A DNA stretch of 64,000 nucleotides from Candidatus Minusculum obligatum (GCA_045401155.1 CP174360.1:159035-223034), one strand, 5' to 3'; numbered from the stretch's first letter, positions 32,412 to 64,000 are shown. The notes: generated by a model from the sequence alone, not told the origin. Translations and numbers: made by a program.

Positions 32412-32469
32412 AACCTCTGGTCTATCGGCTGTCACGCCAGTGGCACTGCCGAGTAGCTATGTTCGGAAT

Positions 32470-32502
<33 letters not shown>

Positions 32503-32710: not shown

Positions 32711-32818
32711 TGTTGGTGATATGGCAAGGTGGAAACACCTGTTCTCATTCCGAACACAGAAGTTAAGCGCCTTCGCGCCGATGGTACTCGAAAGGGGAGA
32801 GTAGGTCGTCGCCAACAC
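32711..32818 (+). rRNA. rrf: 5S ribosomal RNA (about 108 nt)
   Basis: CCGAACACAGAAGTTAAGCGCC..CGCGCCGATGGTACT...GAGAGTAGG; the 5' gtgttggtg pairs with the 3' cgccaacac. Confidence 0.85.
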
Positions 32819-42757: not shown

Positions 42758-42904
42758 GGCCCCACTGTCTAGAAAGGCAGTTTTTGATTGATTTTTGAAA
42801 CACGAGTCTAGTCCATTGGAGCTACCAAGTGACTAGATCATAGAGTACGTAATGATCACTGAGTTAAGTGGAATGAAATATATTTTCTTTCGTTCCGCCT
42901 ATTC

Positions 42905-44362
<1,458 letters not shown>

Positions 44363-44550
44363 GTGGACTTCTTGTACTTTGTACAAGTACGGCGATCATC
44401 TGTTTTACAGATGTGGACATGGCACTCATCCAGAAATGGTGCCCGGCGTACCTACAGTCGGAAGTAGGTCGTTGTGTTGTCGAATTCGCAACATAACGTG
44501 AATAGGCGGAACGAATGAGTATATATTTCAGATTTACGTACACTATGAGC

Positions 44551-47113: not shown

Positions 47114-50100
47114 ATGAAATTTAGATTTCTCACAAGTGCAACAGTTCCCATTTGGTATAAAACAGCACTTGTTGCTATACCTATTTTTATATTTTTATGG
47201 AGTGTATTTCTCACGCCTTTTTTGACAGCGCTTCCAAAAGATTTCTCATACGAAGCAGACATTAGCTCAGTAGATAATTTTTATGATGAGACTATCGGGG
47301 AGTATTTAGGGGAGGAGTACTCTGTAACGACGTTTTCATATAATGCAGAACGAAGCTTGAGCGGCGTTCTTGATATTACACATACATTTAATGTGCGCAC
47401 CCAGGCCGGGGAGCCAATTTTTTCTGTTGAGAGAATGTACGGTATCGACAGGTTCACGCAGGAACATGTTTCAGGGTTTGGTGATGCAGACAGGTATGGA
47501 TACTTGTTTGCGCCAAAGTTTTTAGATGAAAGTAAGGAGTTTACCTATTGGCATATTAATTATGATGCGCCTGCACAAATGGAGTTTGTGGCAGTGGAGA
47601 AGATACTGGGTCTTGAAGTGCTTCGATATCATTCATCATATGAGGGAGAGTGGATTGATCAAACTGAGAATCTTGCCTATTTACCGGGGGTTCCTGAGGA
47701 GCGTGGTGTTGTAGTAGAGCCAGAGCTTACCATATGGGTGGAGCCCGTATCTGGGCACTTAGTTAAGTATGAAGATGAGACTATCGCATATTACTATGAT
47801 CAGGAAACAAAGGAAAAAATAGTCCCATGGAACAGGTTCAGCAACACACTAACAGAGCAGAGTGTGCGAACACATGTTGCCAGTGCACAAGATGCAAAGA
47901 CAAAAAATCTGTTTTATGTATGGTACGTGCCATTGCTTCTTGGGCTGCTCTGGGCAGGGCTCATTGTTTTTGGGAAGACTGTTATCTCAGAGTTTGTTCA
48001 AAAATACATACACTCAAAAGTAATTATTCCTATAGCTGGAGGGTTTCTTATGCTCTCAGCGGGAGTTGTTTTGGTTGATTGGGCGTTACAGCTTGGTGCC
48101 GTATTTCAAATATTTTCAAGTGGAGCAGGGATGAATCCACTTACCGCGCTTACATTTTTTATTATAGGACTTGCGCTAGTTTTTCTTTCGCAAAAGAAGA
48201 TGAAGATTGTGTTTGTGCTAACGGGAGGTGTTATCTTCATCCCTATTTTAAATGTACTTAGTCTTACAAACACCATTCCTATAGATGTTGACCTCATTCT
48301 CTTTAGGGATGCAATTGAGAGTGCGGGAGTACTTTCGCGGATGTCCTGGTTTACAACCATCAACTTTATTTTTCTAGGAATATCAGGACTCGCGTTGCAA
48401 GATTTTCCGCGTCGCATAAAACAATTTTTTTCATTTTTGCCGTTTGGAACACTTGCCGCAGCATTGCTTGCAATTGTTGGATACATAGCAAAAGACCTTG
48501 CACTCCTAGAGTTAATTGTCTTTTCTGGTGTAGGACTAAACACCGCAATTTTGTTTATTGTTGTTTCTATTGTGGCTCTATATATTTACGGATTCCGTAT
48601 TTCTCGAACATCAGGACTTTTGTTTAGTGTATTTTTCACCACATTATTTATTTCTACAATAATGTATTCCTACGTAGTGTCGATTAGTGCACAAAAGCTT
48701 GATGTGCTTTTTTCTGTAGAAACTGCTGCGGTACAAGATACGATTCGAGATAGGTTGAGTATTTATGCAAACACACTCGCAGGTGGTGTAGGTCTCTTTA
48801 ATGCTTCAAATGCAGTAAGTAGAGAGGAGTGGCGTGCATATGTTGAGGCAATTTCAGTGCAAGAAAATTATCCTGGTATCCAGGGTGTTGGGTATGCTGT
48901 TGTGGTAGAAGATGAGCAGGCGCTTATAGAGGAGGTGCGAAACGAAGGCTTCCCTGAGTTTAGTGTGTATCCAGAAAGCGATGAAGAGTTGCGCACAAGC
49001 ATCATTTATCTTGAGCCATTTGATTTTAGAAACCAGCGTGCTTTTGGGTACGACATGTTTTCAGAACAAAATCGTAGACTCGCTATGCAGCGCGCCCGAG
49101 ACTCAGGGCTTCCAAAGATTTCTGATAAGATTACTCTCTTGCAAGAGACAGAGAGTGATGTACAGGCGGGGTTCTTGATGTACTTGCCAGTATACAAAAA
49201 GGGAGACACTCCAATTGATTCTATTGATAGTCGAAGGGCGGGTATTGAAGGATTTGTATACGCTCCGTTCCGTATGAATGACTTTATGGGGGGTATGCAA
49301 AATACGTTTGATAACGAACTTGCCTTTCGCATGTTTAGTGGAACAGAAGCAGACATTGATCAATTATTATATGCTCAAAATGGATCTGCATTTACGGGTG
49401 TCGGAGGAGATGAGGGGGTGTATTCAACAGTCTTTTATGCTGCAGGGCAACCGTGGCTAATTCAGTTTAAGCAACTCCCGTTCTTTGGAGAAGGTGTACG
49501 CGACACAATCTTGCCTCCGTTTATTGCGGCCGTTGGTATCATTGTGAGTTTGCTTGCAACTTTGATTTTATATGCACTTCTTTCTTCTCGAGAGCGTGCA
49601 CTCGCGTATGCAGAGCGTATTACGCAAAACCTAAAGTTGAGTAAGGATCAACTTCTTGAGGCAAAGACACAAACAGAAGCGCTTCTTGGAAGTATTGGAG
49701 AAGGTGTGGTTGCGGTATCTATGACCGGGGAAATCATGTTCGTAAATGATTATGTAGAAAATTTCTTTGGTCGCAAAGGAGAGGAATTTAAAGGGCAGAA
49801 ACTCTTTGATGTAGTTGATGTTGCAGATGAAAATGGGAAAGAAGTTCCTCTTGAGTCATGGTCTGTATATCGTGCGATAAAAACAAAGAAGCGAGTGGTT
49901 GAAACACGGCATATGGTGCGCCTAGATGGAGGTGAGTTTAAGCCTGTGTCTATTACAACAAGCCCAATCATTGTAAATGACAAACCAGTTGGTGCGGTTG
50001 CCGTGTTCCGTGACATTACACAAGAGCGTGCGATAGACCGAGCAAAAAGTGAGTTTGTATCCCTTGCGTCACATCAGTTGCGCACACCACTTTCTGCCAT

Positions 50101-50791
50101 TAATTGGTACGCTGAGATGTTGATGGACGGAGATGCTGGAAAGATCACGAAAAAACAAAGTGAATATTTGGATGAAATATATAAAGGCAATCAGCGAATG
50201 ATTGATTTGGTAAATGCATTGCTAAATGTTTCTCGCATTGAGTTAGGTACATTTTCTGTAGAGCCAGAGGAAATGAATGTAAATGACATTGTAAATGACG
50301 TACTAAAAGAAATAAAAACTTCAGTTGATGAGCGTGACATTCATCTCTCAGTCGGCACAAAGAAGCTTGCAACCATGGTTGCTGACCCGCAACTTGTTCG
50401 CATGGTGGTAACTAACCTGCTTACAAATGCGGTGAAGTACACCCCTGAGGGCGGTGAAGTTACGGTGCGCACAGACATGGTGTCTTCTGGAGAAGAGGTG
50501 CACGGCAAAAAGGCTAAAGAAGAATCAGTGCTTCTTTCTGTTTCAGATACGGGATATGGAATTCCAGAGAATCAAAAAAAAGAAATATTTAAAAAACTCT
50601 TCCGTGCAGATAATGTACAGCGCCGAGACACAAAGGGTACGGGTCTGGGACTATATATTGCAAAGTCAATTGTAGACTTAGCGCAAGGAGAGATTTGGTT
50701 TGATTCTGTAGAAGATAAAGGAACAACATTCTATGTATTGCTTCCTATACACGGCATGGAAAAGAAAGAGGGAAGTAAGCGTATTTCCTAA
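47114..50791 (+). CDS. multi-domain sensor histidine kinase: extracytoplasmic N-terminal domain, polytopic TM region, CHASE-like domain, PAS, HisKA, HATPase_c
   Basis: CHASE-like segment (LSIYANTLAGGVGLF...AFGYDMFSEQNRRLAMQRARDSG), PAS (LLGSIGEGVVAVSMTGEIMFVN), H-box (SEFVSLASHQLRTPLSAI), N/G boxes (LLTNAVKYT, DTGYGIP, GTGLGLYIAKSIV). Confidence 0.85.
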   Translation: MKFRFLTSATVPIWYKTALVAIPIFIFLWSVFLTPFLTALPKDFSYEADISSVDNFYDETIGEYLGEEYSVTTFSYNAERSLSGVLDITHTFNVRTQAGEPIFSVERMYGIDRFTQEHVSGFGDADRYGYLFAPKFLDESKEFTYWHINYDAPAQMEFVAVEKILGLEVLRYHSSYEGEWIDQTENLAYLPGVPEERGVVVEPELTIWVEPVSGHLVKYEDETIAYYYDQETKEKIVPWNRFSNTLTEQSVRTHVASAQDAKTKNLFYVWYVPLLLGLLWAGLIVFGKTVISEFVQKYIHSKVIIPIAGGFLMLSAGVVLVDWALQLGAVFQIFSSGAGMNPLTALTFFIIGLALVFLSQKKMKIVFVLTGGVIFIPILNVLSLTNTIPIDVDLILFRDAIESAGVLSRMSWFTTINFIFLGISGLALQDFPRRIKQFFSFLPFGTLAAALLAIVGYIAKDLALLELIVFSGVGLNTAILFIVVSIVALYIYGFRISRTSGLLFSVFFTTLFISTIMYSYVVSISAQKLDVLFSVETAAVQDTIRDRLSIYANTLAGGVGLFNASNAVSREEWRAYVEAISVQENYPGIQGVGYAVVVEDEQALIEEVRNEGFPEFSVYPESDEELRTSIIYLEPFDFRNQRAFGYDMFSEQNRRLAMQRARDSGLPKISDKITLLQETESDVQAGFLMYLPVYKKGDTPIDSIDSRRAGIEGFVYAPFRMNDFMGGMQNTFDNELAFRMFSGTEADIDQLLYAQNGSAFTGVGGDEGVYSTVFYAAGQPWLIQFKQLPFFGEGVRDTILPPFIAAVGIIVSLLATLILYALLSSRERALAYAERITQNLKLSKDQLLEAKTQTEALLGSIGEGVVAVSMTGEIMFVNDYVENFFGRKGEEFKGQKLFDVVDVADENGKEVPLESWSVYRAIKTKKRVVETRHMVRLDGGEFKPVSITTSPIIVNDKPVGAVAVFRDITQERAIDRAKSEFVSLASHQLRTPLSAINWYAEMLMDGDAGKITKKQSEYLDEIYKGNQRMIDLVNALLNVSRIELGTFSVEPEEMNVNDIVNDVLKEIKTSVDERDIHLSVGTKKLATMVADPQLVRMVVTNLLTNAVKYTPEGGEVTVRTDMVSSGEEVHGKKAKEESVLLSVSDTGYGIPENQKKEIFKKLFRADNVQRRDTKGTGLGLYIAKSIVDLAQGEIWFDSVEDKGTTFYVLLPIHGMEKKEGSKRIS

Positions 50792-50807
50792 GGTATAGTG
50801 TAGATAT

Positions 50808-51188
50808 ATGAAGAAAACAATACTTGTTGTAGAAGATGAATTTCCACTTCTGGATGCTATTACGGAAATGCTTGAAAAGAAGGGGTACGCTGTTGCTTCA
50901 GCACGAAGCGCCAAAGAGGTATTTGAGCTTCTAGAAGATCTCCCAGGACTTGCAGCAGTATGGCTTGATCACTACATTCTAGGAAGAGAGAATGGGCTTG
51001 ATATTGTTGCACGGATGAAGCAAGAGCCTAGTTGGAAAAACATTCCAATATTTGTAGTCTCAAATACTGCCACAGACGATAAGGTTACTTCGTATATACA
51101 GCTTGGTGTAGAGAAGTTTTATGTAAAATCAGAGGCAAAGATTCACGATATTATTGAAGAAATTCACACAGTGATTAACTCAGCGTAG
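50808..51188 (+). CDS. stand-alone response-regulator receiver (CheY-like) protein 1
   Basis: ILVVEDE...AVWLDHYI...K; receiver domain only. Confidence 0.8.
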   Translation: MKKTILVVEDEFPLLDAITEMLEKKGYAVASARSAKEVFELLEDLPGLAAVWLDHYILGRENGLDIVARMKQEPSWKNIPIFVVSNTATDDKVTSYIQLGVEKFYVKSEAKIHDIIEEIHTVINSA

Positions 51189-51190
51189 CT

Positions 51191-51553
51191 ATGAAAATTC
51201 TTATTGTAGAAGACGAGACACCACTTTTAGAAGCACTTTCTACAAAGTTGTCTGGTGCGGGGCATGATATATGTATCGCAAAAGATGGTGTAGAGGGAGT
51301 TACGACAGCGTTTTCAGAGCGTCCAGATATTGTATTGCTCGACATTAAGATGCCAAGAAAAGATGGACTTCAAATGCTTAAAGAGCTTCGAGAAGGTGAG
51401 TGGGGTAAGGAGGTAAGAGTGATTGTTCTTACCAACTTAAACGATCCAGAGCATATTGCAGACATGCTTGAGGCAGGAGCAAATGAGTATTTGGTGAAGA
51501 CAGAGTGGAAATTAAATGAGCTGTTGGATCATCTTGTAGAGAAGGTTTCTTAA
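51191..51553 (+). CDS. stand-alone response-regulator receiver (CheY-like) protein 2
   Basis: ILIVEDE...IVLLDIKMPRKDGLQML. Confidence 0.85.
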   Translation: MKILIVEDETPLLEALSTKLSGAGHDICIAKDGVEGVTTAFSERPDIVLLDIKMPRKDGLQMLKELREGEWGKEVRVIVLTNLNDPEHIADMLEAGANEYLVKTEWKLNELLDHLVEKVS

Positions 51554-51597
51554 CAGGGCGCAACAAGAGCGTCTCTTTTTAAAGCTATACTAGACAT

Positions 51598-51966
51598 ATG
51601 GATGCAAAGAAAAAAATTCTGATCGCAGAAGATGAGAAACCTTTGGCAGAAGCACTTTCTACAAAGTTGTCTAATGCGGGGTATGAGGTAGATGTTGCAG
51701 GAGATGGAAGTGTTGCATGTGAGCGCATGAACAATGGTGCATATGATATGGCTATAGTAGATCTTGTAATGCCTGAGAAAGATGGATTTGCAGTACTCGA
51801 AGAAATGAAAGAAAAAGGGATTACAACACCAATTATTGTTGTATCAAACTTAGCACAAGAGGTAGATAAGGAGCGTGCCCTGGCGCTTGGCGCAGAGGCT
51901 TATTTTGTAAAATCAAACACGCCACTTTCTCAGCTTGTTGAGGAGGTAAAAAAGCGTGTTTCCTAA
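51598..51966 (+). CDS. stand-alone response-regulator receiver (CheY-like) protein 3
   Basis: ILIAEDE...MAIVDLVMPEKDGFAVL. Confidence 0.85.
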   Translation: MDAKKKILIAEDEKPLAEALSTKLSNAGYEVDVAGDGSVACERMNNGAYDMAIVDLVMPEKDGFAVLEEMKEKGITTPIIVVSNLAQEVDKERALALGAEAYFVKSNTPLSQLVEEVKKRVS

Positions 51967-51972
51967 CACCAC

Positions 51973-53622
51973 ATGAAAGGAGCACCGCAGTACTCTCTAG
52001 AAGAGGCGCAAAGTATTTTTGTTAATGGAGGGTATGTGTCTCCAGAGAATTTTGCATTGGTAGAAAAAGAGGCGGATGTGGTGGGCGCATTAGTGCGTAA
52101 AAATATTTTAACTCCTGACCTCGTGGGACAAGCAATTGCTGAACATGCAGCTGTAAATTACGCAGACATTAATTCAAATGGTGTCGCGCACGGTTGGCAT
52201 GAGAAAATTTCTGAAGAAGATGCACGCGTATATCGTTTTGTAATTTTTTCTGTAGCGCCGAAAAAGCGTCATGTTATTGCCGCAACTGATACATTAAAAA
52301 ACCGCACAGAAATTGTTACGTCTGTAAAGAAGGGATATCCAGGGCATACCATTGAGGTTGCATATGGACTTACTTCAGATATTGATAATGCATTTAAGGT
52401 GTATCAAAAGCCATTGCAAAGTCGTTTAAAAGAGATTCTTTCTCAAGAGTCTAAGCGTGTATCAACGAGTCTTGATGAAATTTTAAAGGAGGCGCTTGAT
52501 CGCAATGTGTCAGATATTCATTTTGAGCCTCGAAAGGAGAAGGTCTCTATTCGTTTTCGTATTGACGGTGTGCTTTCTATAGTCGGAGAGGTTTCAGACG
52601 AGTACTACAAGAGTATGGTCAACCGTATTAAGATCTTGGCGGGGCTTCGTATTGACGAGCATACTAAAACACAAGATGGATCAATTCGTACAGCAGACGC
52701 GGCGGGAGATCCGGTTGACCTTCGTGTATCTGTGGCACCAACTATTTCAGGAGAAAAAGTGGTGATTCGTGTGCTTTCTAAGTACACCGAGCGCAGTTAT
52801 CTTGAAGATCTTGGTTTTACTGAGAAGCAGGCTGCTGTAATTATGGCTGCTGCAGAGAATCCGCTTGGATTTATTGTGGTATCAGGCCCCACTGGGTCAG
52901 GTAAGACAACAACGCTTCATACACTACTTTCCGCAATTGCATCTCCAGAGATAAATATTACGACAATTGAGGATCCGGTTGAGTATCGCCTTAAGGATGC
53001 GAATCAGATTCAGGTAAATGAAGCGCAAGGCATAACTTTTGCAAAAGGGCTTCGCTCTATTGTGCGTCAGGACCCAGATGTGATTTTGGTAGGAGAGGTT
53101 CGGGATATTGAGACTGCAGAAATTAGTATTAATGCAGCACTTACCGGACACCGTGTGTTTACCACATTCCACGCAAGTAGTGCGTCTATTACGATTCCAC
53201 GACTTCTTGATATGGGTGTAGAGGAATTTCTTCTAAGCTCTACGCTTTCTGTGGTGGTGGGACAGCGACTAGTGCGTAAGCTTTGTTCTGAGTGTCGCTT
53301 TAGTTACCAGGTGCCGCTTAAAGATATTCCGATTGAAAAGCCGAATAGATTCTTTTTTGCAAAACAAACACTCTATGATGCAAAAGGGTGTGCGGCATGT
53401 GGTGGTACGGGGTATCGAGGGCGTATTGCAGTTGCTGAAGTATTGCAAGTTTCAGATGGACTTCGGAATTTAATATTACAAAAAGCAGATGCAGGTGCGC
53501 TTGAGAGCCAAGCTATACAAGATGGTATGGATACCATGTTCATTTCAGGTATTGAGAAGGTGAAGAGAGGAGAAACATCTCTTGCTGAGCTTCTGCGTGT
53601 GGTAACGCCTCCAGATGCGTAG
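51973..53622 (+). CDS. pilB: type IV pilus assembly ATPase PilB (GspE family)
   Basis: N-terminal GspE_N-like domain, Walker A GPTGSGKTTTLHTLL, and a CxxC...CxxC tetracysteine. Confidence 0.9.
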   Translation: MKGAPQYSLEEAQSIFVNGGYVSPENFALVEKEADVVGALVRKNILTPDLVGQAIAEHAAVNYADINSNGVAHGWHEKISEEDARVYRFVIFSVAPKKRHVIAATDTLKNRTEIVTSVKKGYPGHTIEVAYGLTSDIDNAFKVYQKPLQSRLKEILSQESKRVSTSLDEILKEALDRNVSDIHFEPRKEKVSIRFRIDGVLSIVGEVSDEYYKSMVNRIKILAGLRIDEHTKTQDGSIRTADAAGDPVDLRVSVAPTISGEKVVIRVLSKYTERSYLEDLGFTEKQAAVIMAAAENPLGFIVVSGPTGSGKTTTLHTLLSAIASPEINITTIEDPVEYRLKDANQIQVNEAQGITFAKGLRSIVRQDPDVILVGEVRDIETAEISINAALTGHRVFTTFHASSASITIPRLLDMGVEEFLLSSTLSVVVGQRLVRKLCSECRFSYQVPLKDIPIEKPNRFFFAKQTLYDAKGCAACGGTGYRGRIAVAEVLQVSDGLRNLILQKADAGALESQAIQDGMDTMFISGIEKVKRGETSLAELLRVVTPPDA

Positions 53623-54721
53623 TATGAAAAAAGCTTCTTCAGAGAAAAAGAGAATTATTGCGAGTCTTAAAAATGCTGGCCTACAAGATGCGGTGTACTT
53701 ATTTTTTGATGAGCTTACAGCACTCATGCGTGCAGGAATTACAGTTACAAGAGCTGTGGGAAGCATTAAAGAATCTACACCTTCAAGGCGACTGCGTAAG
53801 ATTCTTGGGAGAGTGGAACAGTCACTTATTGAGGGAGCAACATTATCTGAAGCGCTTTCAGCTGAGTACATCATTAATCCACGTATCAAGACGCTGCTTG
53901 ATGTAGGAGAGCGTTCAGGAAATTTAATTGCAAATCTTGAAGCCATTACACTTCAAAATGAAAAGGAGGTGCTCTTTCGTGGGGCGGTACGATCTTCTCT
54001 GTTGTATGTGGTGATTGTAATGACCGTGTCTCTTGGAGTTGGTATTGCAACCCCATGGATCATTTTGCCGCAGCTAACGGCATTCTTTAGCACCTTTGAT
54101 GCAGATCTTCCTGGCATTACATTATTCTTGATTGGTACCGGGCAATTCTTCACAGATTATGGAGTGTTTGTATTTCCGGCACTCGCAGTGTTTCTTATTC
54201 TTATTTTGTACTTTCTTTTCTCATTCCCAAAGACACGATTTATTGGGCACTCAGTTCTTTTCCATCTACCACTTTCGCACCGCCTGATTAAGGAGGCAGA
54301 GATTGCACGCTTTAGTTATCTGCTTGGTACGCAGCTTCGTGCGGGCATTTCGATTATGGATGCACTTGAGGTGATGCCATCTACAACAACATATGCAAAC
54401 TACAGAAGATTTTATATGACGGTATTAGATCGGGTGAAGGAAGGGTATTCGTTTTCAGAGGCGGTGCTATATGCGGATCCAAAGAAAAAGTTATTGAGCA
54501 GTAGCGTGGTACAGCTTGTCTCAGCAGGGGAGCAATCAGGATCTCTTTCAGATATGTTGCTGAAGGTTGGGGAGACATATGAGAATCGTGTGCAGCAAAC
54601 TGCTAAGAGTATTCCAACATTGCTTGAGCCAATTATGTTGGTGCTTGTGGGGGCGATTGTGGCAGTGATTGCGCTCGGGGTCGTGCTGCCGGTTTACAAT
54701 CTTTCAGAAATTATAAAGTAG
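53615..54721 (+). CDS. pilC: type IV pilus inner-membrane platform protein PilC (GspF family)
   Basis: Two GspF repeats and 3 TM helices; the C-terminus 'LLEPIMLVLVGAIVAVIALGVVLPVYNL' is typical. Confidence 0.85.
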   Translation: MRSMKKASSEKKRIIASLKNAGLQDAVYLFFDELTALMRAGITVTRAVGSIKESTPSRRLRKILGRVEQSLIEGATLSEALSAEYIINPRIKTLLDVGERSGNLIANLEAITLQNEKEVLFRGAVRSSLLYVVIVMTVSLGVGIATPWIILPQLTAFFSTFDADLPGITLFLIGTGQFFTDYGVFVFPALAVFLILILYFLFSFPKTRFIGHSVLFHLPLSHRLIKEAEIARFSYLLGTQLRAGISIMDALEVMPSTTTYANYRRFYMTVLDRVKEGYSFSEAVLYADPKKKLLSSSVVQLVSAGEQSGSLSDMLLKVGETYENRVQQTAKSIPTLLEPIMLVLVGAIVAVIALGVVLPVYNLSEIIK

Positions 54722-54722
54722 T

Positions 54723-55499
54723 ATGCGCGGGTTCTTGCTCATAGAAGGAGTCATTGCTGCTGCACTGACACTTTTAATTAGTGCTGCGATTGCAGGGGTG
54801 TATGTGAGCACAAGTAAGGTGCATGAGGAGGAGATTGTAGATGCGGCACTTCTATCTTCTGCAGAAGCCGGTCTCTCTATTGCACGCAGTATTAGAGACT
54901 TAGATTCAGAGAATTTTCCTATAGGCACATTTGGTGTTGCGAGTACTACAGGGTCGTGGAGCTTTTCAGGAAGTTCTGATGTGAGTAATGGTATTAGTCG
55001 CAGTGTGGTGGTGAGCAGTGTAGATGAAAATACGTTCAAGGTTATTTCAACTGCTAGTAGTGGAAGCAGGAGTAAGAGTTTGAGTACATATTTTTCACGT
55101 TGGCGTGAGGAGGTTGTAAGTGAGGGCACGCTTGTGCTTGATGTAAGTGCTGCGTCTGTTGGTGGTTCAAAAAATGCAGTGCTTTCAGGTATTACGATTG
55201 AAAATACAGGAGGTGCAGAGGTTGAGATTGATACGGCAGTTATTACGTGGACGGGGAATCGTCGTGTAAGTTCAGTTACGATTGATGGGGTAGATTTCTG
55301 GACTGCAGGGGGAGTGGGTTCTCCAAATGGAAATCAAACAAGCGGTACTGTACTTGATGGCACAGATATTGCGATAGCTGCGGGAGATACCGTGCCAATG
55401 GCCGTCACCTTTAATAATAAAGTAAGCGGAGAGACGTTTAGTGTCACACTTAATTTAGTTGGTGGAGGAAGTGTTAGTTCAGGAAGTTTTACACCATGA
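54723..55499 (+). CDS. type IV pilin/pseudopilin-like protein (class III signal: MRG|FLLIE)
   Basis: Prepilin cleavage motif G-F-x-x-x-E followed by a hydrophobic helix; Ser/Thr/Gly-rich globular part. Confidence 0.65.
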   Translation: MRGFLLIEGVIAAALTLLISAAIAGVYVSTSKVHEEEIVDAALLSSAEAGLSIARSIRDLDSENFPIGTFGVASTTGSWSFSGSSDVSNGISRSVVVSSVDENTFKVISTASSGSRSKSLSTYFSRWREEVVSEGTLVLDVSAASVGGSKNAVLSGITIENTGGAEVEIDTAVITWTGNRRVSSVTIDGVDFWTAGGVGSPNGNQTSGTVLDGTDIAIAAGDTVPMAVTFNNKVSGETFSVTLNLVGGGSVSSGSFTP

Positions 55500-55927
55500 G
55501 TAGAGGATTCACATTAATTGAACTTATTGTTTACATTGCACTGATGAGCATTGTCTTTGGCGCACTTGCGAGTTTAGTGGTGTCAGGGAATCGTGGGGTT
55601 ACAGGTCGTGAGCAGGTAGATGATGTGTACGTAGCGCAGGCTCGTATTATGAAGAGTATTAGAGATGACGTAGATGATAGTTCTAGTGTGAGTGCTCCAG
55701 GAGGTAATTTGCAGCTTGCTACAAGTGGTGGGTCTGTCACGTACACGGTTGCAGGAGGAGAGTTTCGCAGAGGTGCAGATGTGATCTCACCTCCAAGTGT
55801 TGTGGTGTCTGATTTTTCTGCGGAGGTATTTAATAGCAAGGGAGTGTCTGTATCGATGAGGCTTACGCACGTAGATGATAGTGAGGAGGTTCTATATATA
55901 GAGAATGCATTTGTATTGTATGAATAA
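55496..55927 (+). CDS. type IV pilin (prepilin motif MSRG|FTLIELIVYIALMSIV)
   Basis: Canonical GFTLIE N-terminus. Confidence 0.7.
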   Translation: MSRGFTLIELIVYIALMSIVFGALASLVVSGNRGVTGREQVDDVYVAQARIMKSIRDDVDDSSSVSAPGGNLQLATSGGSVTYTVAGGEFRRGADVISPPSVVVSDFSAEVFNSKGVSVSMRLTHVDDSEEVLYIENAFVLYE

Positions 55928-56279
55928 AGGATTTACCACAACCTTCATATTAGTTATCGTCATGGCATTTACGTTAGCGGGAGTGCTCGCGGTTGCGACG
56001 CGTACAGTCTCAGTACTTAAGTACGATCGGGTTGTAAGTACTAGAGCTCAGGCGGTATTCTCAGCGCATGCTTGTGCTGAGGCGGGATTGCTTTCGGTTA
56101 GAGATGGCGGAAGTACATCAGGGAGCATAAGTGATGGTGCTATTTCTTGTTCATATAATGTAAGCGGTACTACAGTTGCCGCTACAGGGGCTGCAGGCGG
56201 TGTTTCAAAAAGCGTAAGTGTTTCTTTTGTCGAAGGGAATCCGCTCAGCGTAAGCTCATTTACAGGTCTTAAGTGGTAG
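55920..56279 (+). CDS. minor pilin-like protein (MNKGFTTTFILVIV...; lacks Glu5)
   Basis: Pilin-like hydrophobic N-terminus at a pilin-cluster position. Confidence 0.4.
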   Translation: MNKGFTTTFILVIVMAFTLAGVLAVATRTVSVLKYDRVVSTRAQAVFSAHACAEAGLLSVRDGGSTSGSISDGAISCSYNVSGTTVAATGAAGGVSKSVSVSFVEGNPLSVSSFTGLKW

Positions 56280-57710: not shown

Positions 57711-58229
57711 GTGATGAGAGAACTACAGCTTCTTGCAGTTGCTACATTCTTTGCCCTTATTGTTGGAGGAGGCCTATTTCTTTTGGTAAGTGGTGGTCTT
57801 TCAGATATTGGGTCTACATATAGGCCACAGTTTAAGACGGTTGCAAGTAGTGTTTCAGGTCCAACTGATGTGCTTACGTCTCGTAAGAACTATGTGTTTC
57901 GAGAGCAAGAAGACTTTGTTGCATTTTGGGAGCTTATATATGGAAATGATCCTGCTGCAACACGTCCTCCGGTTATTGCATTTGCACGGGATCATGCGAT
58001 TGCGGTTGTGGCGGGGGTTAAAAATACGGGAGGGTATGAAATTTATGTGCGTGATGTTATTGAAACTCCAGAAGAGCGTATTGTGGAGGTTGTTATGCGT
58101 TCTCCAGGAGAAGGGTGTCAGGTGACTGAAGCATTTACAAACCCATTCCAAATTATTTCAGTAAAGAAGACCGACAAGCCGCTTCGGGCAGTTGAGATTA
58201 AAGAGGAGTATAGTTGCGGAGTTCAGTAG
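57711..58229 (+). CDS. membrane-anchored PrcB_C-like domain protein
   Basis: N-terminal TM helix; 'VAGVKNTGGYEIYVRDVIE...IVEVVMRSPGEG' resembles the PrcB C-terminal domain. Confidence 0.4.
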   Translation: MMRELQLLAVATFFALIVGGGLFLLVSGGLSDIGSTYRPQFKTVASSVSGPTDVLTSRKNYVFREQEDFVAFWELIYGNDPAATRPPVIAFARDHAIAVVAGVKNTGGYEIYVRDVIETPEERIVEVVMRSPGEGCQVTEAFTNPFQIISVKKTDKPLRAVEIKEEYSCGVQ

Positions 58230-58248
58230 TTTTCTATAGGTTGTAAGT

Positions 58249-58923
58249 ATGGGAACGCTCTATGTTATTGCTACCCCAATTGGGAACCTGCACGATATAA
58301 GCGCACGGGCTATTTCTGTACTTAAAGAGGTGTATGTCATTGCCGCAGAGGATACACGGGTGAGTAAGAGGTTGCTTATGGAGTATGGGGTTAGTACACC
58401 GATGATCTCATACCATGCGCAAAGTAAAGACAGCGCACGAGATGGTATTGTGAAGCGCCTTGCAGAAGGAAATGATGTGGCGCTTATTACAGATGCCGGG
58501 ACTCCTGGCATTTCAGATCCTGGTACTGAGCTTGTACGCTTTGCACGGGATGCAGGTTTTTCAGTAGTTACGGTTCCAGGGCCGTCTGCATTAACTGCAG
58601 CACTTTCAATTGCCGGCATTCCTACAAATCAATTTACGTTCTTGGGATTCTTGCCGCACAAGAAGGGAAGAGAAACATTGTTTAAAGAGATTAGTGAGAG
58701 TGATCGGACTATGGTGTTTTATGAGTCTCCGCACAGGATTATGAAAACACTTCTTCGATTGTCTGAATTGCTCGGAGAAGATAAAAGAATTTCTATATTT
58801 CGAGAGCTTACAAAGATACATGAGGAGGTAGTCGAGGGTTCAGCTGCCGAAGTACTTCAGTATTTTGTAGAGAATGAAGAGCATATCCGAGGGGAATTTG
58901 TTGTCGCCGTTTCAAGCAAATAG
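58249..58923 (+). CDS. rsmI: 16S rRNA (cytidine1402-2'-O)-methyltransferase RsmI (tetrapyrrole-methylase fold)
   Basis: MGTLYVIATPIGNLHDISARAISVLKEVYVIAAEDTRVSKRLL. Confidence 0.85.
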   Translation: MGTLYVIATPIGNLHDISARAISVLKEVYVIAAEDTRVSKRLLMEYGVSTPMISYHAQSKDSARDGIVKRLAEGNDVALITDAGTPGISDPGTELVRFARDAGFSVVTVPGPSALTAALSIAGIPTNQFTFLGFLPHKKGRETLFKEISESDRTMVFYESPHRIMKTLLRLSELLGEDKRISIFRELTKIHEEVVEGSAAEVLQYFVENEEHIRGEFVVAVSSK

Positions 58924-58936
58924 TATAGTAGGGGTA

Positions 58937-59128
58937 ATGTATAGAACACTTCTTATTATTCTAATTGTCGCAATTATTCTGGTACCGTTTTCGGGTATTC
59001 CAGGGGGTGCGGAAGATATTTTGATGCAGGTACTTGCCGCTGTAGTACTTGCGCTTGTATTGCTCTTGCCTAAAAAAATGCAAAAGCAGGAGAAGGAAGT
59101 TGTAGCTGAAGAGACATATGGTGCGTAG
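58937..59128 (+). CDS. small hydrophobic membrane protein (63 aa)
   Basis: MYRTLLIILIVAIILVPFSGIPGG...; low confidence. Confidence 0.3.
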   Translation: MYRTLLIILIVAIILVPFSGIPGGAEDILMQVLAAVVLALVLLLPKKMQKQEKEVVAEETYGA

Positions 59129-60341
59129 TGCGAGTATTTTTGTAGGTGTTGCGCTTGCTGGTGGTGCACTCGTACTTCTTCCTTCTCAAGATTTTTTATA
59201 TGAGAGAGTTGGAGATGTTGGAGTTGAAGTAAAAGAAGAGGTAAAGCTTCCAGAGGTGGAGCATCTTAAGACTCCTGAGTCAGTAAAGATGGTGTATATG
59301 AGTGCGTGTGCTGCTGGGAGCAATACGTTCCGCAAGCACTTCAAGGAGCTTGTTTCTACGACAGAGTTAAATAGCGTCATGATCGACGTGAAGGATTTTA
59401 GTGGGACCATTGCCTTCCAGGCTCAAGATGAAAGACTGGATCAAGATGATGCGCCAGGGTGTTTTGTGTCGGATATGAAGGAGCTCGTTGCTGAGTTTAA
59501 GGAAATGGGCATCTATACTATTGCACGCATTACAGTCTTCCAAGATCCATACTATGCACCGCGACATCCTGAACAGGCGGTGCAAAAAGAAAGTGATAAG
59601 TCAGTGTGGCATGATTATAAAGGGCTTTCATTTGTGGATGTAGGAGCACGTGAGTACTGGGACTACATCGTGACGCTTTCTGAAGAGACGTATGCACTTG
59701 GGTTTGATGAGCTTAACTTTGATTACATTCGATATCCGTCTGATGGGGACATGAAGGATATTTATTATCCAATCACAAATGCGCAAGTTGAGGCAGATCC
59801 GGACTATGGGAAGGCGCACGAACTTAAGAAATTCTTCGCGTATCTTTCATCATCTCTTCCAGAGGGAGCGGTTACATCAGCAGATCTTTTTGGCATGACG
59901 ACGACTAATACAGATGATCTAAATATTGGACAGGTTATGGAGTACGCATATCCGTACTTTGATTACATTGCGCCAATGACATACCCGTCACATTATCCAT
60001 CTGGATTTTATGGAATTGCCAATCCAAATGATCACGTGTATGACGTGATGAAGATTTCTTTAGATAAAGCAGTAGAGCGATTTGAGAGTACGAGTACGAT
60101 TGTGCCATTTGATGATTCTCTTGCAATTGCCTCTACTACACCGCAGGCATACACCAAAGAAGTATTCGATACAGATAAGATTCGTCCTTGGATTCAGGAT
60201 TTTGATTATGGAGGAACGTATGGACCAGATAAGGTGCGTGCACAAATTCAAGCAGTATACGATGCGGGGCTTGATTCATGGATGCTGTGGGATCCAAGTA
60301 ATTGGTACACGAAGGAAGCACTACTTTCTTCAGATATATGA
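59118..60341 (+). CDS. membrane-anchored putative glycoside hydrolase-like TIM-barrel protein (DUF4015/GHL-like)
   Basis: N-terminal TM helix; MIDVKDFSGTIAF...GIYTIARITVFQD...ELNFDYIRYP pattern. Confidence 0.5.
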   Translation: MVRSASIFVGVALAGGALVLLPSQDFLYERVGDVGVEVKEEVKLPEVEHLKTPESVKMVYMSACAAGSNTFRKHFKELVSTTELNSVMIDVKDFSGTIAFQAQDERLDQDDAPGCFVSDMKELVAEFKEMGIYTIARITVFQDPYYAPRHPEQAVQKESDKSVWHDYKGLSFVDVGAREYWDYIVTLSEETYALGFDELNFDYIRYPSDGDMKDIYYPITNAQVEADPDYGKAHELKKFFAYLSSSLPEGAVTSADLFGMTTTNTDDLNIGQVMEYAYPYFDYIAPMTYPSHYPSGFYGIANPNDHVYDVMKISLDKAVERFESTSTIVPFDDSLAIASTTPQAYTKEVFDTDKIRPWIQDFDYGGTYGPDKVRAQIQAVYDAGLDSWMLWDPSNWYTKEALLSSDI

Positions 60342-60577
60342 AATTAAAGCTTAAAAAAATTCTTTCCATTCTCATCCCCATACTGTTTTTGGGAATGGCA
60401 CTTTCGTATCTCTTTTTTGAATTTTCTCTTTCTAAAGACTCGCAGGCGCTAAAGGAAGAGTGTACTACTCGCATGGTTCAGGCAGAAGAAAATGGAGAGG
60501 AGTTTTCATACAATCATTGTGTAAATGAACAAGAGTTGTTTATTCGATCAAACCTAAAGTTTCTTTTTGGAGATTAG
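60338..60577 (+). CDS. small membrane-anchored protein
   Basis: The ATGA overlap with the upstream stop suggests translational coupling. MKLKLKKILSILIPILFLGMALSYLFF. Confidence 0.3.
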   Translation: MKLKLKKILSILIPILFLGMALSYLFFEFSLSKDSQALKEECTTRMVQAEENGEEFSYNHCVNEQELFIRSNLKFLFGD

Positions 60578-60621
60578 TCTCGTTTCTGTCCAAGTTTGTG
60601 TAATTAGAACAGTAAAAGAAT

Positions 60622-62226
60622 GTGTATACTGTATGTATGAGTGAGAACCTTGATAAGGTGACCTATTTTGGTGCTGCAGATGCGCGTGGAAGAAACACGC
60701 CTTTTGGTATTCGTAAGGGAGACCGGACGCGGCACATGTACGTGATTGGGAAGACGGGTATGGGTAAGAGTACCTTGCTTGAGAACCTTGCCATTCAGGA
60801 TATTAATAATGGAGAAGGGTTGGCATTTATTGATCCGCACGGCTCTACTGCAGAGACGCTTTTAGATTATATTCCAGAGCACCGCGTAAAGGATGTGGTG
60901 TATTTTGCGCCGTTTGATTTGGATAACCCTATTGCCTTCAATGTGATGGAGGATGTTGGATACGATAAGCGACACTTGGTGGTAAGTGGACTTATGTCTA
61001 CCTTCAAGAAGATTTGGGTGGATGCGTGGAGTGCGCGAATGGAGTACATTTTGACCAACACACTTTTGGCGCTTCTTGAGTATCCGGGAGCAACACTTTT
61101 GGGAGTGAATCGTATGTACGTAGATAAGGACTATCGTAATGATGTGATCGCACATATTACCGATCCTGTAGTAAAAGACTTTTGGACAAAAGAGTTTGCA
61201 GGGTATACCGATCGATTTACACAAGAGGCAACACCTGCGATTCAAAACAAGGTGGGCCAGTTTACAAGTAACCCAGTGATTAGAAATATCATTGGGCAGC
61301 CAGTATCTTCTTTTGATATTAGAAAGATTATGGATGAGAAGAAGATTCTTATCGTAAACCTTTCAAAGGGGCAGGTAGGAGATACGAATGCGCAGCTTCT
61401 CGGATCTATGCTTACGACGCGTATTTATCTTGCGGCGATGAGTCGTGCAGACTTACGTAAGTCAGAGTTGCAAAAGCTTCCAAACTTTTATTTCTATGTG
61501 GACGAGTTCCAAAACTTTGCCAATGAGACCTTTGCAGAGATTCTCTCTGAGGCACGTAAGTACAAACTTAATCTTATTATCGCGCACCAATACATTGAGC
61601 AGATGGAAGAGGAGGTTAAAAATGCGGTATTTGGAAACGTGGGTACGACCGTCTCTTTTCGTGTAGGTCCGTTTGACGCAGAGGTGCTCGAGGCCATTTT
61701 CCAACCAAGCTTCACCAAAGAAGATTTGGTGAACCTGGGACAGTACCAGATTTATCTAACCCTTATGATCAATGGGGTTGGTAGCCAGCCATTTTCTGCA
61801 ATGACCATTCCGCCAATTGAAATGCCAGATGTGACATATCGAGAGGAGGTAATTGCAAACTCTAAGAAAACATACGGAAAGGAGCGTAAGGGGATTGAGG
61901 AGGCAATCTTTGCAGCACTTTCTCCATTGCAGCCTGCAGGAAAAGCAATGCAGGAAGAGAAGAAAAAGCCGAAGAAGCAAAATAATAATAATACTAAGAA
62001 ACAGAATCCTCCAAAGAAGCAAGAAAAGAATTCAGGAGAGCTTCGAGATATTTTAAAGAAGGTAGCAGGTAAGGAAGAGAAGAAAAAAGAAATGCCGAAG
62101 CAAGAAAACAGTGCTCTAAAGGAGGCGCTTAAGAAAGCAGAGGTTAGAGAGACTCCAAAGACTGAAGCTAAGACAAATGAAGTTCCTGAAGAGGTACTGA
62201 AACAAATTATTGCTGATGATTCGTAG
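60622..62226 (+). CDS. FtsK/HerA/TraG-superfamily P-loop ATPase (AAA_10/DUF87-like) with Lys-rich C-terminal tail
   Basis: Walker A VIGKTGMGKSTLLENL followed by FIDPHGS (the DPHGE/DPKG motif of HerA/VirD4/VirB4-type ATPases). C-terminal KKKPKKQNNNNTKKQNPPKKQEK. Confidence 0.6.
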   Translation: MYTVCMSENLDKVTYFGAADARGRNTPFGIRKGDRTRHMYVIGKTGMGKSTLLENLAIQDINNGEGLAFIDPHGSTAETLLDYIPEHRVKDVVYFAPFDLDNPIAFNVMEDVGYDKRHLVVSGLMSTFKKIWVDAWSARMEYILTNTLLALLEYPGATLLGVNRMYVDKDYRNDVIAHITDPVVKDFWTKEFAGYTDRFTQEATPAIQNKVGQFTSNPVIRNIIGQPVSSFDIRKIMDEKKILIVNLSKGQVGDTNAQLLGSMLTTRIYLAAMSRADLRKSELQKLPNFYFYVDEFQNFANETFAEILSEARKYKLNLIIAHQYIEQMEEEVKNAVFGNVGTTVSFRVGPFDAEVLEAIFQPSFTKEDLVNLGQYQIYLTLMINGVGSQPFSAMTIPPIEMPDVTYREEVIANSKKTYGKERKGIEEAIFAALSPLQPAGKAMQEEKKKPKKQNNNNTKKQNPPKKQEKNSGELRDILKKVAGKEEKKKEMPKQENSALKEALKKAEVRETPKTEAKTNEVPEEVLKQIIADDS

Positions 62227-63406
62227 CCTTCTTTTATTTTGTATCTTTCCGCATCTTGCGTTTGCAGGAGTCTATATAAGTGAGGTTGCATGGATGGGAG
62301 ATGGTGAGAGTGCAAATAATGAGTGGATAGAGTTATATAGTAGTGAGTCAGTTGATCTTGGTGGGTGGAGCCTCTCTGCATTAGATGGCACGCCAAGCAT
62401 TTCATTAGAGGGCACCATAGATGGTGCTTTTGTTATATATCGTGGGACTAACTACTCTGGTGCACTAGAAAATAGTGGAGAAGTGCTTATTCTTTCAGAT
62501 GCTTCTGGTGCAGAAATAGATAGAGTAGATGGAGGTGATGGGTGGAGTATCGGGGGAGACAATGACTCAAAAGAAACTGCTCAGTTTATAGATGGGTCAT
62601 GGATTACAGCTTCTCCTACACCAGGCTCTGTTTCTTTTGCAGAAGAAACGGTTGTAGAGAGTGTTTCTAGTGCTGGTGGCTCTACGTATACTCCGGCACA
62701 TTTAGTTATTGATATTCCAGATGTGATTGAGGTTGTTGCAGGAGATGATCATATATTTGAGGTTGGTGTAGGGAATAGTGAGGGTGCTACGTACACGGGA
62801 GCCTTGGTGTCGTGGAATTTTGGAGACGGAAGCAGTCTTTCGGGGAATAAGATATATCATCGCTATCCGTATGCGGGGGAGTACGTGGCATATGTGCATG
62901 TGCGGTATGGAAATGAAGAGTTTTCTAAAAAAGTTTTGGTGGTGGTGCGGGATGCAGATATTTCATTTTCAGTAGTAGATCAAGATAAGGTGGAGATTAT
63001 AAATGGAGATGATACAGAATTAGATATTTCACATTGGAGGATTACAGACGGCTCTAATGTGTTTATGTTCCCAGCGCATAGTTATGTAGGGAATGAGAGT
63101 TCTGTGTTTATCTCATCTGCCGTGGCAGGATTTAATTTTGGAGAGGATACAGTACTTACGTATCCAAATGGAGAGGAGGTCTTGAGGACTGAAGAAGAGG
63201 TCATAGTTTCTCCGCAGGTTGTATATGTTCCTGCTCCTGTAGTGGAAGAGGTTTTAGTAGAAGAAGATGAGGCACCTCTACTACCTGCGGCAGCAGTTGT
63301 TGCAGATGAAGCTGCAGGAGGGTTGTCGATATGGGTGTATGCCTGGGTGCTGGTAGTTTTGCTGGCGGGCGGAAGTATCGTATATGTGCGAAAGGCGCGG
63401 GCCTGA
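62210..63406 (+). CDS. secreted lamin-tail-domain (LTD) protein with C-terminal TM anchor
   Basis: Signal peptide; 'VYISEVAWMGDGESANNEWIELYSSESVDLGGWSLS' is an LTD signature. C-terminal hydrophobic helix plus RKARA. Confidence 0.65.
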   Translation: MLMIRSLLLFCIFPHLAFAGVYISEVAWMGDGESANNEWIELYSSESVDLGGWSLSALDGTPSISLEGTIDGAFVIYRGTNYSGALENSGEVLILSDASGAEIDRVDGGDGWSIGGDNDSKETAQFIDGSWITASPTPGSVSFAEETVVESVSSAGGSTYTPAHLVIDIPDVIEVVAGDDHIFEVGVGNSEGATYTGALVSWNFGDGSSLSGNKIYHRYPYAGEYVAYVHVRYGNEEFSKKVLVVVRDADISFSVVDQDKVEIINGDDTELDISHWRITDGSNVFMFPAHSYVGNESSVFISSAVAGFNFGEDTVLTYPNGEEVLRTEEEVIVSPQVVYVPAPVVEEVLVEEDEAPLLPAAAVVADEAAGGLSIWVYAWVLVVLLAGGSIVYVRKARA

Positions 63407-63420
63407 GATTAGGTCCGCGC
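63395..63420. terminator. bidirectional hairpin terminator between convergent genes
   Basis: gcgcgggcc-tgagatta-ggtccgcgc. Confidence 0.55.
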
Positions 63421-63431
63421 CTTCACGCTGT

Positions 63432-63755
63432 TTATCCGAACAGCGGACGGTCGATTGCTCTCAAAAAGAGTGCAATTATGGATGCAGCAAATGTAAGACC
63501 GACACCGATGCCGACAAGCATTACGGCAAAGGCTGGATATGTGATGGTCAGAACCCACACACATATGCCAGCAAATGCTGAGCTGAGGCATACGCTGATC
63601 CAGTCAAATTTTGTCATCCATTTGTACGAAATCATGTACAGGACTGCAGTTGTGGTTGTCGCCGTAGGGCTCACCGCGGGCCAGAGAATGAGAGTTGTGA
63701 TTGCATAGACGCCCGCAAGGGCGAGCAAGCACAAAACAACGATTACATTTTTCAT
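63432..63755 (-). CDS. hypothetical polytopic membrane protein
   Basis: 107 aa with 3 predicted TM helices. Confidence 0.45.
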   Translation of the reverse strand: MKNVIVVLCLLALAGVYAITTLILWPAVSPTATTTTAVLYMISYKWMTKFDWISVCLSSAFAGICVWVLTITYPAFAVMLVGIGVGLTFAASIIALFLRAIDRPLFG

Positions 63756-63828
63756 GACAGCCTCCTCTAATGCTCAAGGTACGTGATTATTGTGCATATA
63801 GCAATACATAGTAGTATCTTTTATATAT

Positions 63829-64000
63829 ATGGCTAAATTAGCAGCGGTTACAGGCGGAGCAGGGTTTATTGGTTCACATTTGTGTGAGCGTCTTGTCTCT
63901 GAAGGATACAAGGTTATCTCTCTAGATAATTACTTTACAGGCTCAAAAGAGAATCATGTGGAGGGTGTTGAGTATCGGGAGGGGCACACAAAAGATATCG
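63829..64000 (+). CDS. NAD-dependent epimerase/dehydratase (UDP-sugar decarboxylase/4,6-dehydratase-like), 3'-truncated by window end
   Basis: [43 protein letters not shown]. Confidence 0.7.

Follow-up and report, generated by a model that had tools for sequence, protein, structure and literature searches.

A coupling-type ATPase without a membrane domain and its modular surface partner in Candidatus Minusculum obligatum: a candidate DNA-uptake pair

Patescibacteria, or the Candidate Phyla Radiation (CPR), represent a large part of bacterial diversity; unable to make nucleotides, they are thought to rely on material obtained from other cells. In conjugation, type IV coupling proteins (T4CPs) bind DNA and serve as its translocation motor, and their C-terminal domains, as a rule acidic, serve to recruit protein adaptors (PMC7434980). 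In 2,918 Patescibacteria genomes there are 5,713 VirD4-like T4CP homologues, only 148 of them near virB4; exaptation of these orphans was 'not ruled out' and their function was left explicitly open (PMC12102498). What is already published about them is their existence, as counts without an assigned function. As for DNA import, only 31% of CPR genomes have an annotated canonical ComEA, the ComEC of CPR bacteria has no nuclease domain (PMC6744442), and the CPR com core consists of ComEC, DprA and ComFC, with no ComFA motor (PMC10633639). Here we describe two overlapping genes in a 64,000-nucleotide stretch of Candidatus Minusculum obligatum (GCA_045401155.1, CP174360.1:159035-223034; hereafter 'the window'), which encode a VirD4/TrwB-class coupling-type ATPase lacking a transmembrane domain (TMD) and a surface protein with a lamin-tail domain (LTD). 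We are very confident of the identity and architecture of this pair as set out below. We tentatively favor the possibility, which we hold to be short of probable, that the two proteins form a two-sided DNA-uptake module consisting of an exapted coupling ATPase and a modular receptor.

The ATPase gene (60637..62226, + strand) codes for 529 amino acids. The longest open reading frame (ORF) spans 60622-62226 and opens with a GTG at 60622; the likely start is the ATG at 60637 (MSENLDKV...), which matches a 529-aa public protein from a metagenome-assembled genome (MAG; P0001). That protein is 100% identical to the window's ATPase, lies on a 578,798-bp contig and is named 'type IV secretory system conjugative DNA transfer family protein' in its record. 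The Walker A motif (P-loop) GKTGMGKST (60748-60774, +) and the IDPHGS motif downstream of it are unchanged in 48 homologues, as is the VDEFQNF stretch, with D289 and E290, of the Walker B region FYFYVDEFQNF (61486-61518, +). Three T4CP families in Pfam match the protein above threshold: PF02534 (T4SS-DNA_transf; 31.5 bits, cut-off 20.1), PF10412 (TrwB_AAD_bind; 31.2 bits, cut-off 20.5) and PF12696 (TraG-D_C; 27.7 bits, cut-off 22). The full-length TraD models of NCBIfam match only locally and far under their cut-offs. The predicted fold matches TrwB, VirB4 and DotL, with 343 residues aligned to TrwB, and the model shows an eight-helix insertion in the nucleotide-binding domain, between the Walker motifs (residues 109-233; 60961..61335, +), at the position of the TrwB all-alpha domain; the TrwB_AAD_bind match is in keeping with this. 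An earlier note on this DNA had reported both ORFs, the Walker A and DPHGS motifs and a HerA/TraG-superfamily ATPase, all of which we recovered; classification by profile returned T4CP families and not an unrelated ATPase family. These matches put the protein in the HerA/FtsK superfamily and, within it, in the TraG/VirD4/TrwB coupling-protein branch, with a RecA-like nucleotide-binding domain and an all-alpha insertion. DUF87 (HerA) scored 21.3 bits, under the Pfam cut-off of 23.2; neither profiles nor the model revealed a HAS-barrel N-terminal domain, Pfam gave no FtsK_SpoIIIE match, and there were no DEAD-box or helicase C families among the Pfam matches. Walker A begins at residue 38, so that some 35 residues, modelled as two short strands, precede the P-loop, and hydropathy predicts no transmembrane (TM) or hydrophobic segment that could form a two-helix N-terminal membrane domain. 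Because there is no TM segment, we place the ATPase in the architectural subtype 'T4CP lacking TMD' (PMC7434980).

The closest known proteins are TrwB of R388 (PDB 1e9r), VirD4, Cagbeta and DotL, and the window's ATPase differs from them in lacking their N-terminal two-helix membrane domain. Unlike VirD4/TrwB-type T4CPs, it has no linked VirB4, mating-pair-formation (MPF) or relaxase genes, and it is the product of a chromosomal core gene with extreme sequence conservation. Where an acidic C-terminal domain has been described in T4CPs, the tail here is mildly basic and ends in a terminal peptide. There is precedent for T4CPs that lack a TMD and work with small membrane proteins (PMC7434980). 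TraJ of pIP501, for instance, is a soluble coupling protein thought to act via the small membrane protein TraI (PMC7434980); a small membrane protein, c5, is likewise encoded upstream of our ATPase. However, TraJ and TraI are encoded inside a conjugative tra operon with relaxase and MPF genes, whereas the present module lies among housekeeping genes. HerA proteins (HerA-NurA and the defence ATPases) have a HAS-barrel and a NurA or other effector, and the window's ATPase has neither. ComFA is a DEAD-box helicase, which our ATPase is not, so any equivalence between the two would be functional and not by homology.

The ATPase is a chromosomal, vertically inherited and very slowly evolving core gene of Paceibacteria-type Patescibacteria. 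A word-indexed search with it returned at least 8000 matches, of which the top 120 are 61-85% identical over their full length; the named records among these 120 are all Patescibacteria, Paceibacteria or Kaiserbacteria except for one 'Bacillota', which may be mis-binned. When 1.84 billion cluster representatives (50%-identity clusters) were searched exhaustively with HMMER, 21,856 matched at E<=1e-3 and 5,843 at E<=1e-30. Across 80 related genomes, identity to the window's copy is 74-92% for the ATPase core (median 77%), compared with 47% for MurC, 53% for RsmI, 48% for DUF4015 and 30% for the surface partner, a contrast that may be inflated since the 80 loci were picked by ATPase similarity. 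Very strong purifying selection acts on the gene, which does not belong to a conjugative element. Many of the third-party-assembled MAGs that carry the locus (L004, L008, L009 and others) are titled 'uncultured Candidatus Saccharibacteria bacterium', yet their synteny is near-identical to that of Kaiserbacteria/Paceibacterota records; the Saccharibacteria labels on these MAGs may be a taxonomy-mapping artefact.

A second architecture makes up about one third of the complete representatives and consists of an N-terminal TM helix, a PF26449/DUF8128 domain of ~350 aa and the same core, which is about 46-56% identical to that of the window's ATPase (median 49%). Like the window's ATPase these long-form relatives are chromosomal and away from T4SS (type IV secretion system) genes, but they have their own TM helix and DUF8128 domain and a different synteny: IleRS, holin-like protein, SecG, SBP, L9, RuvX and the ATPase, with PGK and SSB further on. 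No LTD-type or helix-hairpin-helix (HhH) partner and no T4SS genes were found near the long-form loci, and no free-standing DUF8128 homologue was found in the window or the related loci. The long forms (P0302, P0315 and others; loci L085-L087) are fixed after ruvX, on contigs of up to 1.4 Mb.

According to the model, the ATPase is laid out as a globular core, a disordered tether and a candidate docking peptide. The tether is a K/E/P/N-rich linker at residues 429-513 (61921..62175, +), with pLDDT (model confidence) under 50 over residues 432-515. Near its start is a basic patch, KAMQEEKKKPKK (61942-61977, +), of an 'ARMKKKP'-like kind that is conserved in the family, and overlapping this a K-rich run, KKKPKKQNNNNTKKQNPPKKQEK (61960-62028, +); residues 429-529 together contain 26 K/R vs 18 D/E. 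The last 16 residues, NEVPEEVLKQIIADDS (62176..62223, +), are conserved and predicted to form a short helix (modelled at residues 518-526), which makes them a candidate docking motif. The consensus form of this 16-mer is PFEVPEEALRKVLKGE, and most family members follow PFEVPEExLRxVLKG where the window has NEVPEEVLKQIIADDS. We aligned the tails of 79 ATPases from related loci. Their cores (residues 1 to ~395) are nearly invariant, while the region after residue ~425 is anywhere between 98 and 317 aa long, reaching 510 aa among library representatives. The terminal peptide stands at the extreme C-terminus regardless of linker length and is kept in relatives with a ~440-aa linker. Family-wide, the tail has a K+R fraction of 0.18 and a D+E fraction of 0.14, with a median net charge of +7 over ~165 residues. 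The earlier note had read the polylysine tail as a nucleic-acid binder. This does not hold for the family, whose tail is a variable disordered linker that is only mildly basic and in which the patch and the terminal peptide are what is conserved; poly-lysine is limited to the window's lineage in the 79-ATPase alignment, and we rejected it as a conserved DNA-binding element. Among 150 library representatives the terminal motifs fall into classes (EVPEDVLRxVL, Phi-x-PG(Q/E)-x-Phi-x-F, ERSPF and FEEPII) that are lineage-specific and recurrent. Co-variation of peptide class with the tails of the partner or c5 tracks phylogeny and is inseparable from shared ancestry. Some short-form members (P0464, P0475, P0504 and P0507, one of them labelled Portnoybacteria) match PF23477, and one of these PF23477-bearing proteins is named in its source as a 'CxxC-x17-CxxC' zinc-ribbon domain protein; they represent a further variant of the family beside the one with a disordered tail and terminal peptide.

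The partner gene (62216..63406, +) codes for 396 aa and starts at the ATG at 62216 (MIRSLL..., as in the L001 orthologue), 11 nt inside the ATPase gene, whose TAG stop is at 62224-62226; the overlap had been pointed out in the earlier note. The protein is 100% identical to P0121, a 'PKD domain-containing protein [Patescibacteria group bacterium UBA2103]'. By hydropathy its first 18 residues, MIRSLLLFCIFPHLAFAG (62216..62269, +), ending AFA|G, resemble a signal peptide, and a hydrophobic signal-like N-terminus is present in all partner orthologues. An LTD head follows at residues ~19-135 (62270..62620, +), predicted as a beta-sandwich with pLDDT above 85. Pfam LTD (PF00932) scores 56.8 bits (cut-off 34.3) on the partner, in two stretches; the second of these coincides with a further, LTD-like beta-sandwich in the model (residues ~249-325; 62960..63190, +), a position at which the orthologues have weak LTD matches. 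Between the two, profiles and model agree on a PKD domain at residues ~160-245 (62693..62950, +; PKD_4, PF18911, 29.7 bits against a cut-off of 27; PKD, PF00801, 25.4 against 23.5). An acidic, V/E/P/A-rich linker (63191..63316, +), with pLDDT under 50 over residues 339-368, leads to a C-terminal TM anchor predicted by hydropathy at residues 368-391 (helix modelled at 372-395), which together with a cytoplasmic tail, RKARA, occupies 63317..63403 (+). The model as a whole (pLDDT 83.5) has three beta-sandwich domains, the disordered acidic linker and the terminal TM helix. The LTD, the signal-like N-terminus and the membrane anchor were thus correctly described in the earlier note, in which the PKD domain and the second domain of LTD-like type went unnoticed. 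A fold search returned generic Ig arrays only (phage Hoc, the GhpA grappling hook and S-layer proteins), which is uninformative as to ligand. Many partners (for example L019:4002-5177, L034:8742-9905 and L028:5456-6862) end at a '(K/R)SPWTLGxLGVxxLAGGAFILL' segment with zero cytoplasmic residues. In appearance the segment is less an ordinary TM anchor than a C-terminal signal for sorting or anchoring; the sorting-signal models of NCBIfam had no match in the five partner proteins scanned.

Comparison of the orthologues shows that the outer head is exchangeable. Of 38 aligned partners, all have PKD and 37 have an LTD match, while at the N-terminus, in place of the LTD head, 15 have HHH_3 (up to 75.6 bits) and four have an Ig-like FlgD_ig domain. 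The ComEA HhH repeat model of NCBIfam (TIGR00426, cut-off 53.1) scored 66.7, 71.1, 58.5, 51.0 and 41.3 on five HhH-headed partners, three of which are above the cut-off; the full-length ComEA model (TIGR01259) was far under its cut-off in all partners scanned. Neither HHH_3 (Pfam) nor TIGR00426 (NCBIfam) matches the window's own partner. When 68 loci were classified by head, we counted 29 with LTD (plus the window), 18 with HhH and five with an Ig-like head, the partner being absent from 14-15. On a rough neighbor-joining tree of ATPase cores, at least six switches between LTD and HhH heads, and about 10 changes in partner presence or absence, are needed. Judging by sequence, then, the partner is a Sec-exported, C-terminally anchored protein made up of a constant stalk (PKD, LTD-like domain, linker and TM) and an exchangeable outer head.

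Two described proteins are informative for comparison. ComEA is a membrane-anchored DNA receptor, and the HhH heads of many orthologous partners match its NCBIfam HhH model; the topology is however reversed here, with an N-terminal head and a C-terminal anchor on a PKD/LTD stalk, and in the window the head is an LTD. ExeM of Shewanella, which acts on extracellular DNA, combines a signal peptide with an LTD at the N-terminus and a hydrophobic anchor at the C-terminus (PMC6085458), a layout like that of the partner, although secreted nucleases of the ExeM type carry a nuclease domain and the partner does not. The role of bacterial LTDs is unresolved, in ExeM too (PMC6085458), and the suggestion in the earlier note that an LTD is a sign of DNA handling therefore loses its footing. 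The swapping of LTD and HhH heads at the same position does provide indirect evidence on what bacterial LTDs bind.

The second line of evidence is linkage. We examined the neighborhood within 8 kb of the ATPase in 80 related genome loci, counting partners by tblastn. In 58 of the 73 loci with enough sequence, the ATPase is immediately followed by a partner-family gene in the same orientation, mostly with gaps of -50 to +19 nt, and apparent gaps of 1.1-1.6 kb after the ATPase in some loci turned out to be full-length partner genes. The reverse look-ups agree: three partner homologues of 29-33% identity each lie, in four loci, right after a T4CP-like ATPase (663-870 aa) whose core is 70-73% identical to the window's. 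Conserved neighborhood, which the earlier note had made the test of its pairing, is in this sense borne out. The two genes are translationally coupled in most genomes, and we think it fairly probable that they are also functionally coupled. Upstream, the order across the 80 loci is murD/murC, rsmI, c5, an optional DUF4015, ~370-aa unannotated protein or YkuD-PBP5 fusion, and then the ATPase; epimerase and GT1/GT2 glycosyltransferase (GT) genes lie downstream of the partner in related loci.

The c5 gene (58937..59128, +; 63 aa) encodes a small protein with two TM segments and lies between rsmI and the ATPase block. A family hidden Markov model finds it upstream of the ATPase in 71 of the 72 loci that have more than 700 nt of upstream sequence; in 36 of these, no more than 150 nt separate the two, and in loci without an adjacent rsmI c5 still accompanies the ATPase. 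By analogy with the small membrane proteins mentioned above, c5 might, speculatively, tether the TMD-less ATPase to the membrane; it may equally be no more than a gene that follows rsmI. Its tight linkage to rsmI is unlike the situation of TraI of pIP501, which sits in the tra operon, and an interaction between c5 and the ATPase is a candidate only. Members of the c5 family (L001-L080) are 63-105 aa long, and their cytoplasmic tails end in clade-specific motifs such as '..ISPI' and 'GNGERGTDSFVETTEPLF'. Another candidate, a 79-aa single-TM ORF (60338-60577) that lies immediately upstream of the ATPase and is ATGA-coupled to DUF4015, was dropped as a partner after tblastn gave no significant match in any locus, the nearest relatives included. 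Promoter-like sites in 58200-64000 were less frequent than in shuffled sequence, and a terminator scan of this region gave nothing informative.

A plausible scenario for DNA uptake would run as follows. On the outside of the cell, the surface protein would capture extracellular double-stranded DNA in the manner of ComEA; the ATPase ring, held at the membrane by the terminal peptide and perhaps also by c5, would draw a DNA strand inward to the cytoplasm, a task performed by ComFA in Firmicutes; and the channel would be encoded elsewhere, either as ComEC or as an unlinked Patescibacteria T4SS. The best clue to DNA handling is the replacement of the LTD head by a ComEA-type DNA-binding domain in 18 of the 68 loci. 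It lends independent support to the DNA-handling idea of the earlier note, which had proposed part of a DNA-uptake or secretion apparatus; we found no channel or other apparatus gene nearby. The more specific version, in which a conjugative coupling protein has become the cytoplasmic motor of chromosomal DNA import, served by a receptor with a ComEA-HhH, LTD or Ig head and linked to the channel by its tether (maybe with c5), we regard as doubtful.

Several observations weigh against DNA uptake by this pair: (i) the partner is missing in 15 of 73 loci (~20%), with about 10 gains or losses on the tree, so the strongly conserved role of the ATPase cannot depend on it; (ii) the cytoplasmic portion of the partner is, by hydropathy, only 0-5 residues in most loci, which makes direct contact with the ATPase unlikely; (iii) the window's partner bears an LTD head, for which DNA binding is unproven (PMC6085458), some other heads are Ig-like, and by fold the whole protein resembles a generic Ig-array adhesin or S-layer-type protein; (iv) the ATPase tail is mildly basic, while T4CP C-terminal domains are typically acidic adaptor binders; (v) no ComEC, ComFC, DprA, VirB4, VirB6 or relaxase gene was found within 8 kb in the 80 loci, nor were these channel, T4SS and relaxase genes found among the scanned large proteins of the 64-kb window; and (vi) gene order is highly conserved overall in such genomes, so that adjacency alone counts for less here than elsewhere among bacteria. 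Selection of the 80 loci by similarity to the ATPase may also have inflated the contrast in conservation.

Much of the same evidence can be read differently. The ATPase might be the coupling protein of the unlinked chromosomal T4SS, which usually lies near dnaA, recruiting protein or DNA for delivery to or extraction from a host, with the partner serving as an adhesin or contact sensor whose variable head recognizes host-surface ligands. Membership of the T4CP family is what one would expect in that case, and Patescibacteria T4SS clusters are usually without a nearby T4CP, the 5,713 homologues lying elsewhere (PMC12102498). A long C-terminal extension with a docking motif is known in the T4CPs DotL and TraD, the partner's fold is like that of adhesins, phage Hoc and S-layer Ig arrays, and the partner both evolves fast (~30% identity) and swaps heads, as host-contact proteins do. 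Nevertheless, we consider a role in T4SS coupling rather unlikely: the T4SS of S. epibionticum is essential and its t4cp homologue is not (PMC12102498), the authors of another study saw no recognizable coupling protein in the T4SS cluster (PMC10633639), heads of the ComEA HhH type are DNA binders and not adhesins, conservation of the ATPase core far exceeds that usually seen in a substrate-recruiting T4CP, and no T4SS gene is linked in any of the 80 loci. If the repeated loss of the partner is given more weight (15 of 73 loci, about 10 events, with the ATPase retained and nearly invariant), the two genes could instead be co-transcribed and functionally independent, the ATPase being a cytoplasmic housekeeping enzyme (one that remodels or translocates chromosomal DNA or another polymer, for example) and the partner an envelope protein of the downstream cell-wall and GT cluster. 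The neighborhood is indeed one of envelope biogenesis (MurC/D, MurI, the YkuD-PBP5 fusion, DUF4015, epimerase and GT1/GT2), the long-form relatives sit in another housekeeping context by RuvX without such a partner, and the partner has almost no cytoplasmic portion with which to meet the ATPase. Independence is unlikely in our view since start/stop overlaps or few-nucleotide gaps persist where the partner has diverged to ~30% identity, the linkage is reciprocal, and a DNA-binding head beside a motor of the DNA-translocase type would be a coincidence.

Two further explanations carry much less weight. FtsZ and similar division proteins have a globular core, a disordered linker and a terminal peptide, and by analogy the layout of the ATPase could be that of a protein acting like FtsK/SpoIIIE in chromosome segregation or cell division. 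Such a role would explain the position beside the mur genes, and shared superfamily membership, the proximity of murC, murD and peptidoglycan genes and very high conservation are in keeping with it. However, the window encodes a complete FtsK (12364-14568, -), by which the ATPase is ruled out as an FtsK substitute, and we hold an FtsK-like role to be very improbable. A HerA-type anti-phage defence module, in which the ATPase would work with an effector or sensor, is scarcely credible. PADLOC gave a mad8 match of 49 bits and weak HerA matches on the ATPase, and the fold is like that of the HerA-DUF4297, HerA-Sir2 and DptH defence ATPases; but there is no nuclease, Sir2 or other effector, and the partner is a secreted Ig-array protein without a PADLOC match. 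Moreover, a single-copy core gene in a fixed housekeeping context with 74-92% identity is the reverse of what defence genes show, which are patchy and island-borne, and a defence system is essentially refuted by genomic context.

If the more specific version of the DNA-uptake reading is true, it would account for both the ComFA-like motor and the ComEA that most CPR genomes are missing, and would give a function to the ~5,700 'orphan' T4CP homologues of the phylum. The locus is in any case a testable candidate for two stated gaps, the role of the orphan T4CPs (PMC12102498) and the binding and inward drive of DNA (PMC6744442, PMC10633639). The 16-residue terminal peptide offers a handle for finding the partner of the motor. 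Even if the DNA-uptake reading is wrong, the ATPase is better conserved than MurC and RsmI of the same genomes, which marks it as an important protein. In the literature searched, we found no description of the short TMD-less form with its disordered tether and terminal peptide, of ATPase conservation above that of housekeeping enzymes, of an operon with a modular LTD/ComEA-HhH/PKD surface protein, or of the conserved upstream two-TM protein (c5); the word 'lamin' is absent from PMC12102498 and PMC6744442.

Other features of the window may be of interest. A nearby type IV pilus locus had been connected with the pair in the earlier note. The window's PilB, PilC and three pseudopilins (51973-56279) are unmatched within 8 kb in the 80 loci, including the closest ones (L001 and L002); as no pilus protein is matched there, the adjacency is specific to the window's genome and the connection falls away. 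The pilus genes belong to a longer run on the + strand (47114-56279) that begins with a 1225-aa sensor kinase (PorA-like N-terminal region, CHASE, PAS, HisKA and HATPase, checked with Pfam) and continues with three tandem receiver-like ORFs of ~120 aa, a PilB-like (549 aa) and a PilC-like protein (368 aa) and three pseudopilin-like ORFs, identities that were read from the translations. The arrangement, with all ORFs on one strand, suggests a pilus locus under two-component control. Right after the partner, and shortly before the window ends at 64000, is a 107-aa hydrophobic ORF, probably with several TM segments (63432-63755, -), that is unmatched in the 80 loci, in which the epimerase and GT cluster takes this place. 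Two ORFs at 15900-19247 (+; 1115 aa) and 19397-20590 (+; 397 aa) have hydrophobic signal-like N-termini and no Pfam match. The ribosomal RNA genes are unlinked and in an unusual order, with 23S at 29464-32619 and 5S at 32712-32817 followed by 16S at 42904-44363 on the same strand, ~10 kb downstream and with protein-coding genes between. The 23S gene is ~230 nt longer than the Rfam model, and inside it, at 30772-30875 (+), is a tRNA-like Rfam match (42 bits, 104 nt) that is not called by ARAGORN and may lie in a 23S insertion.

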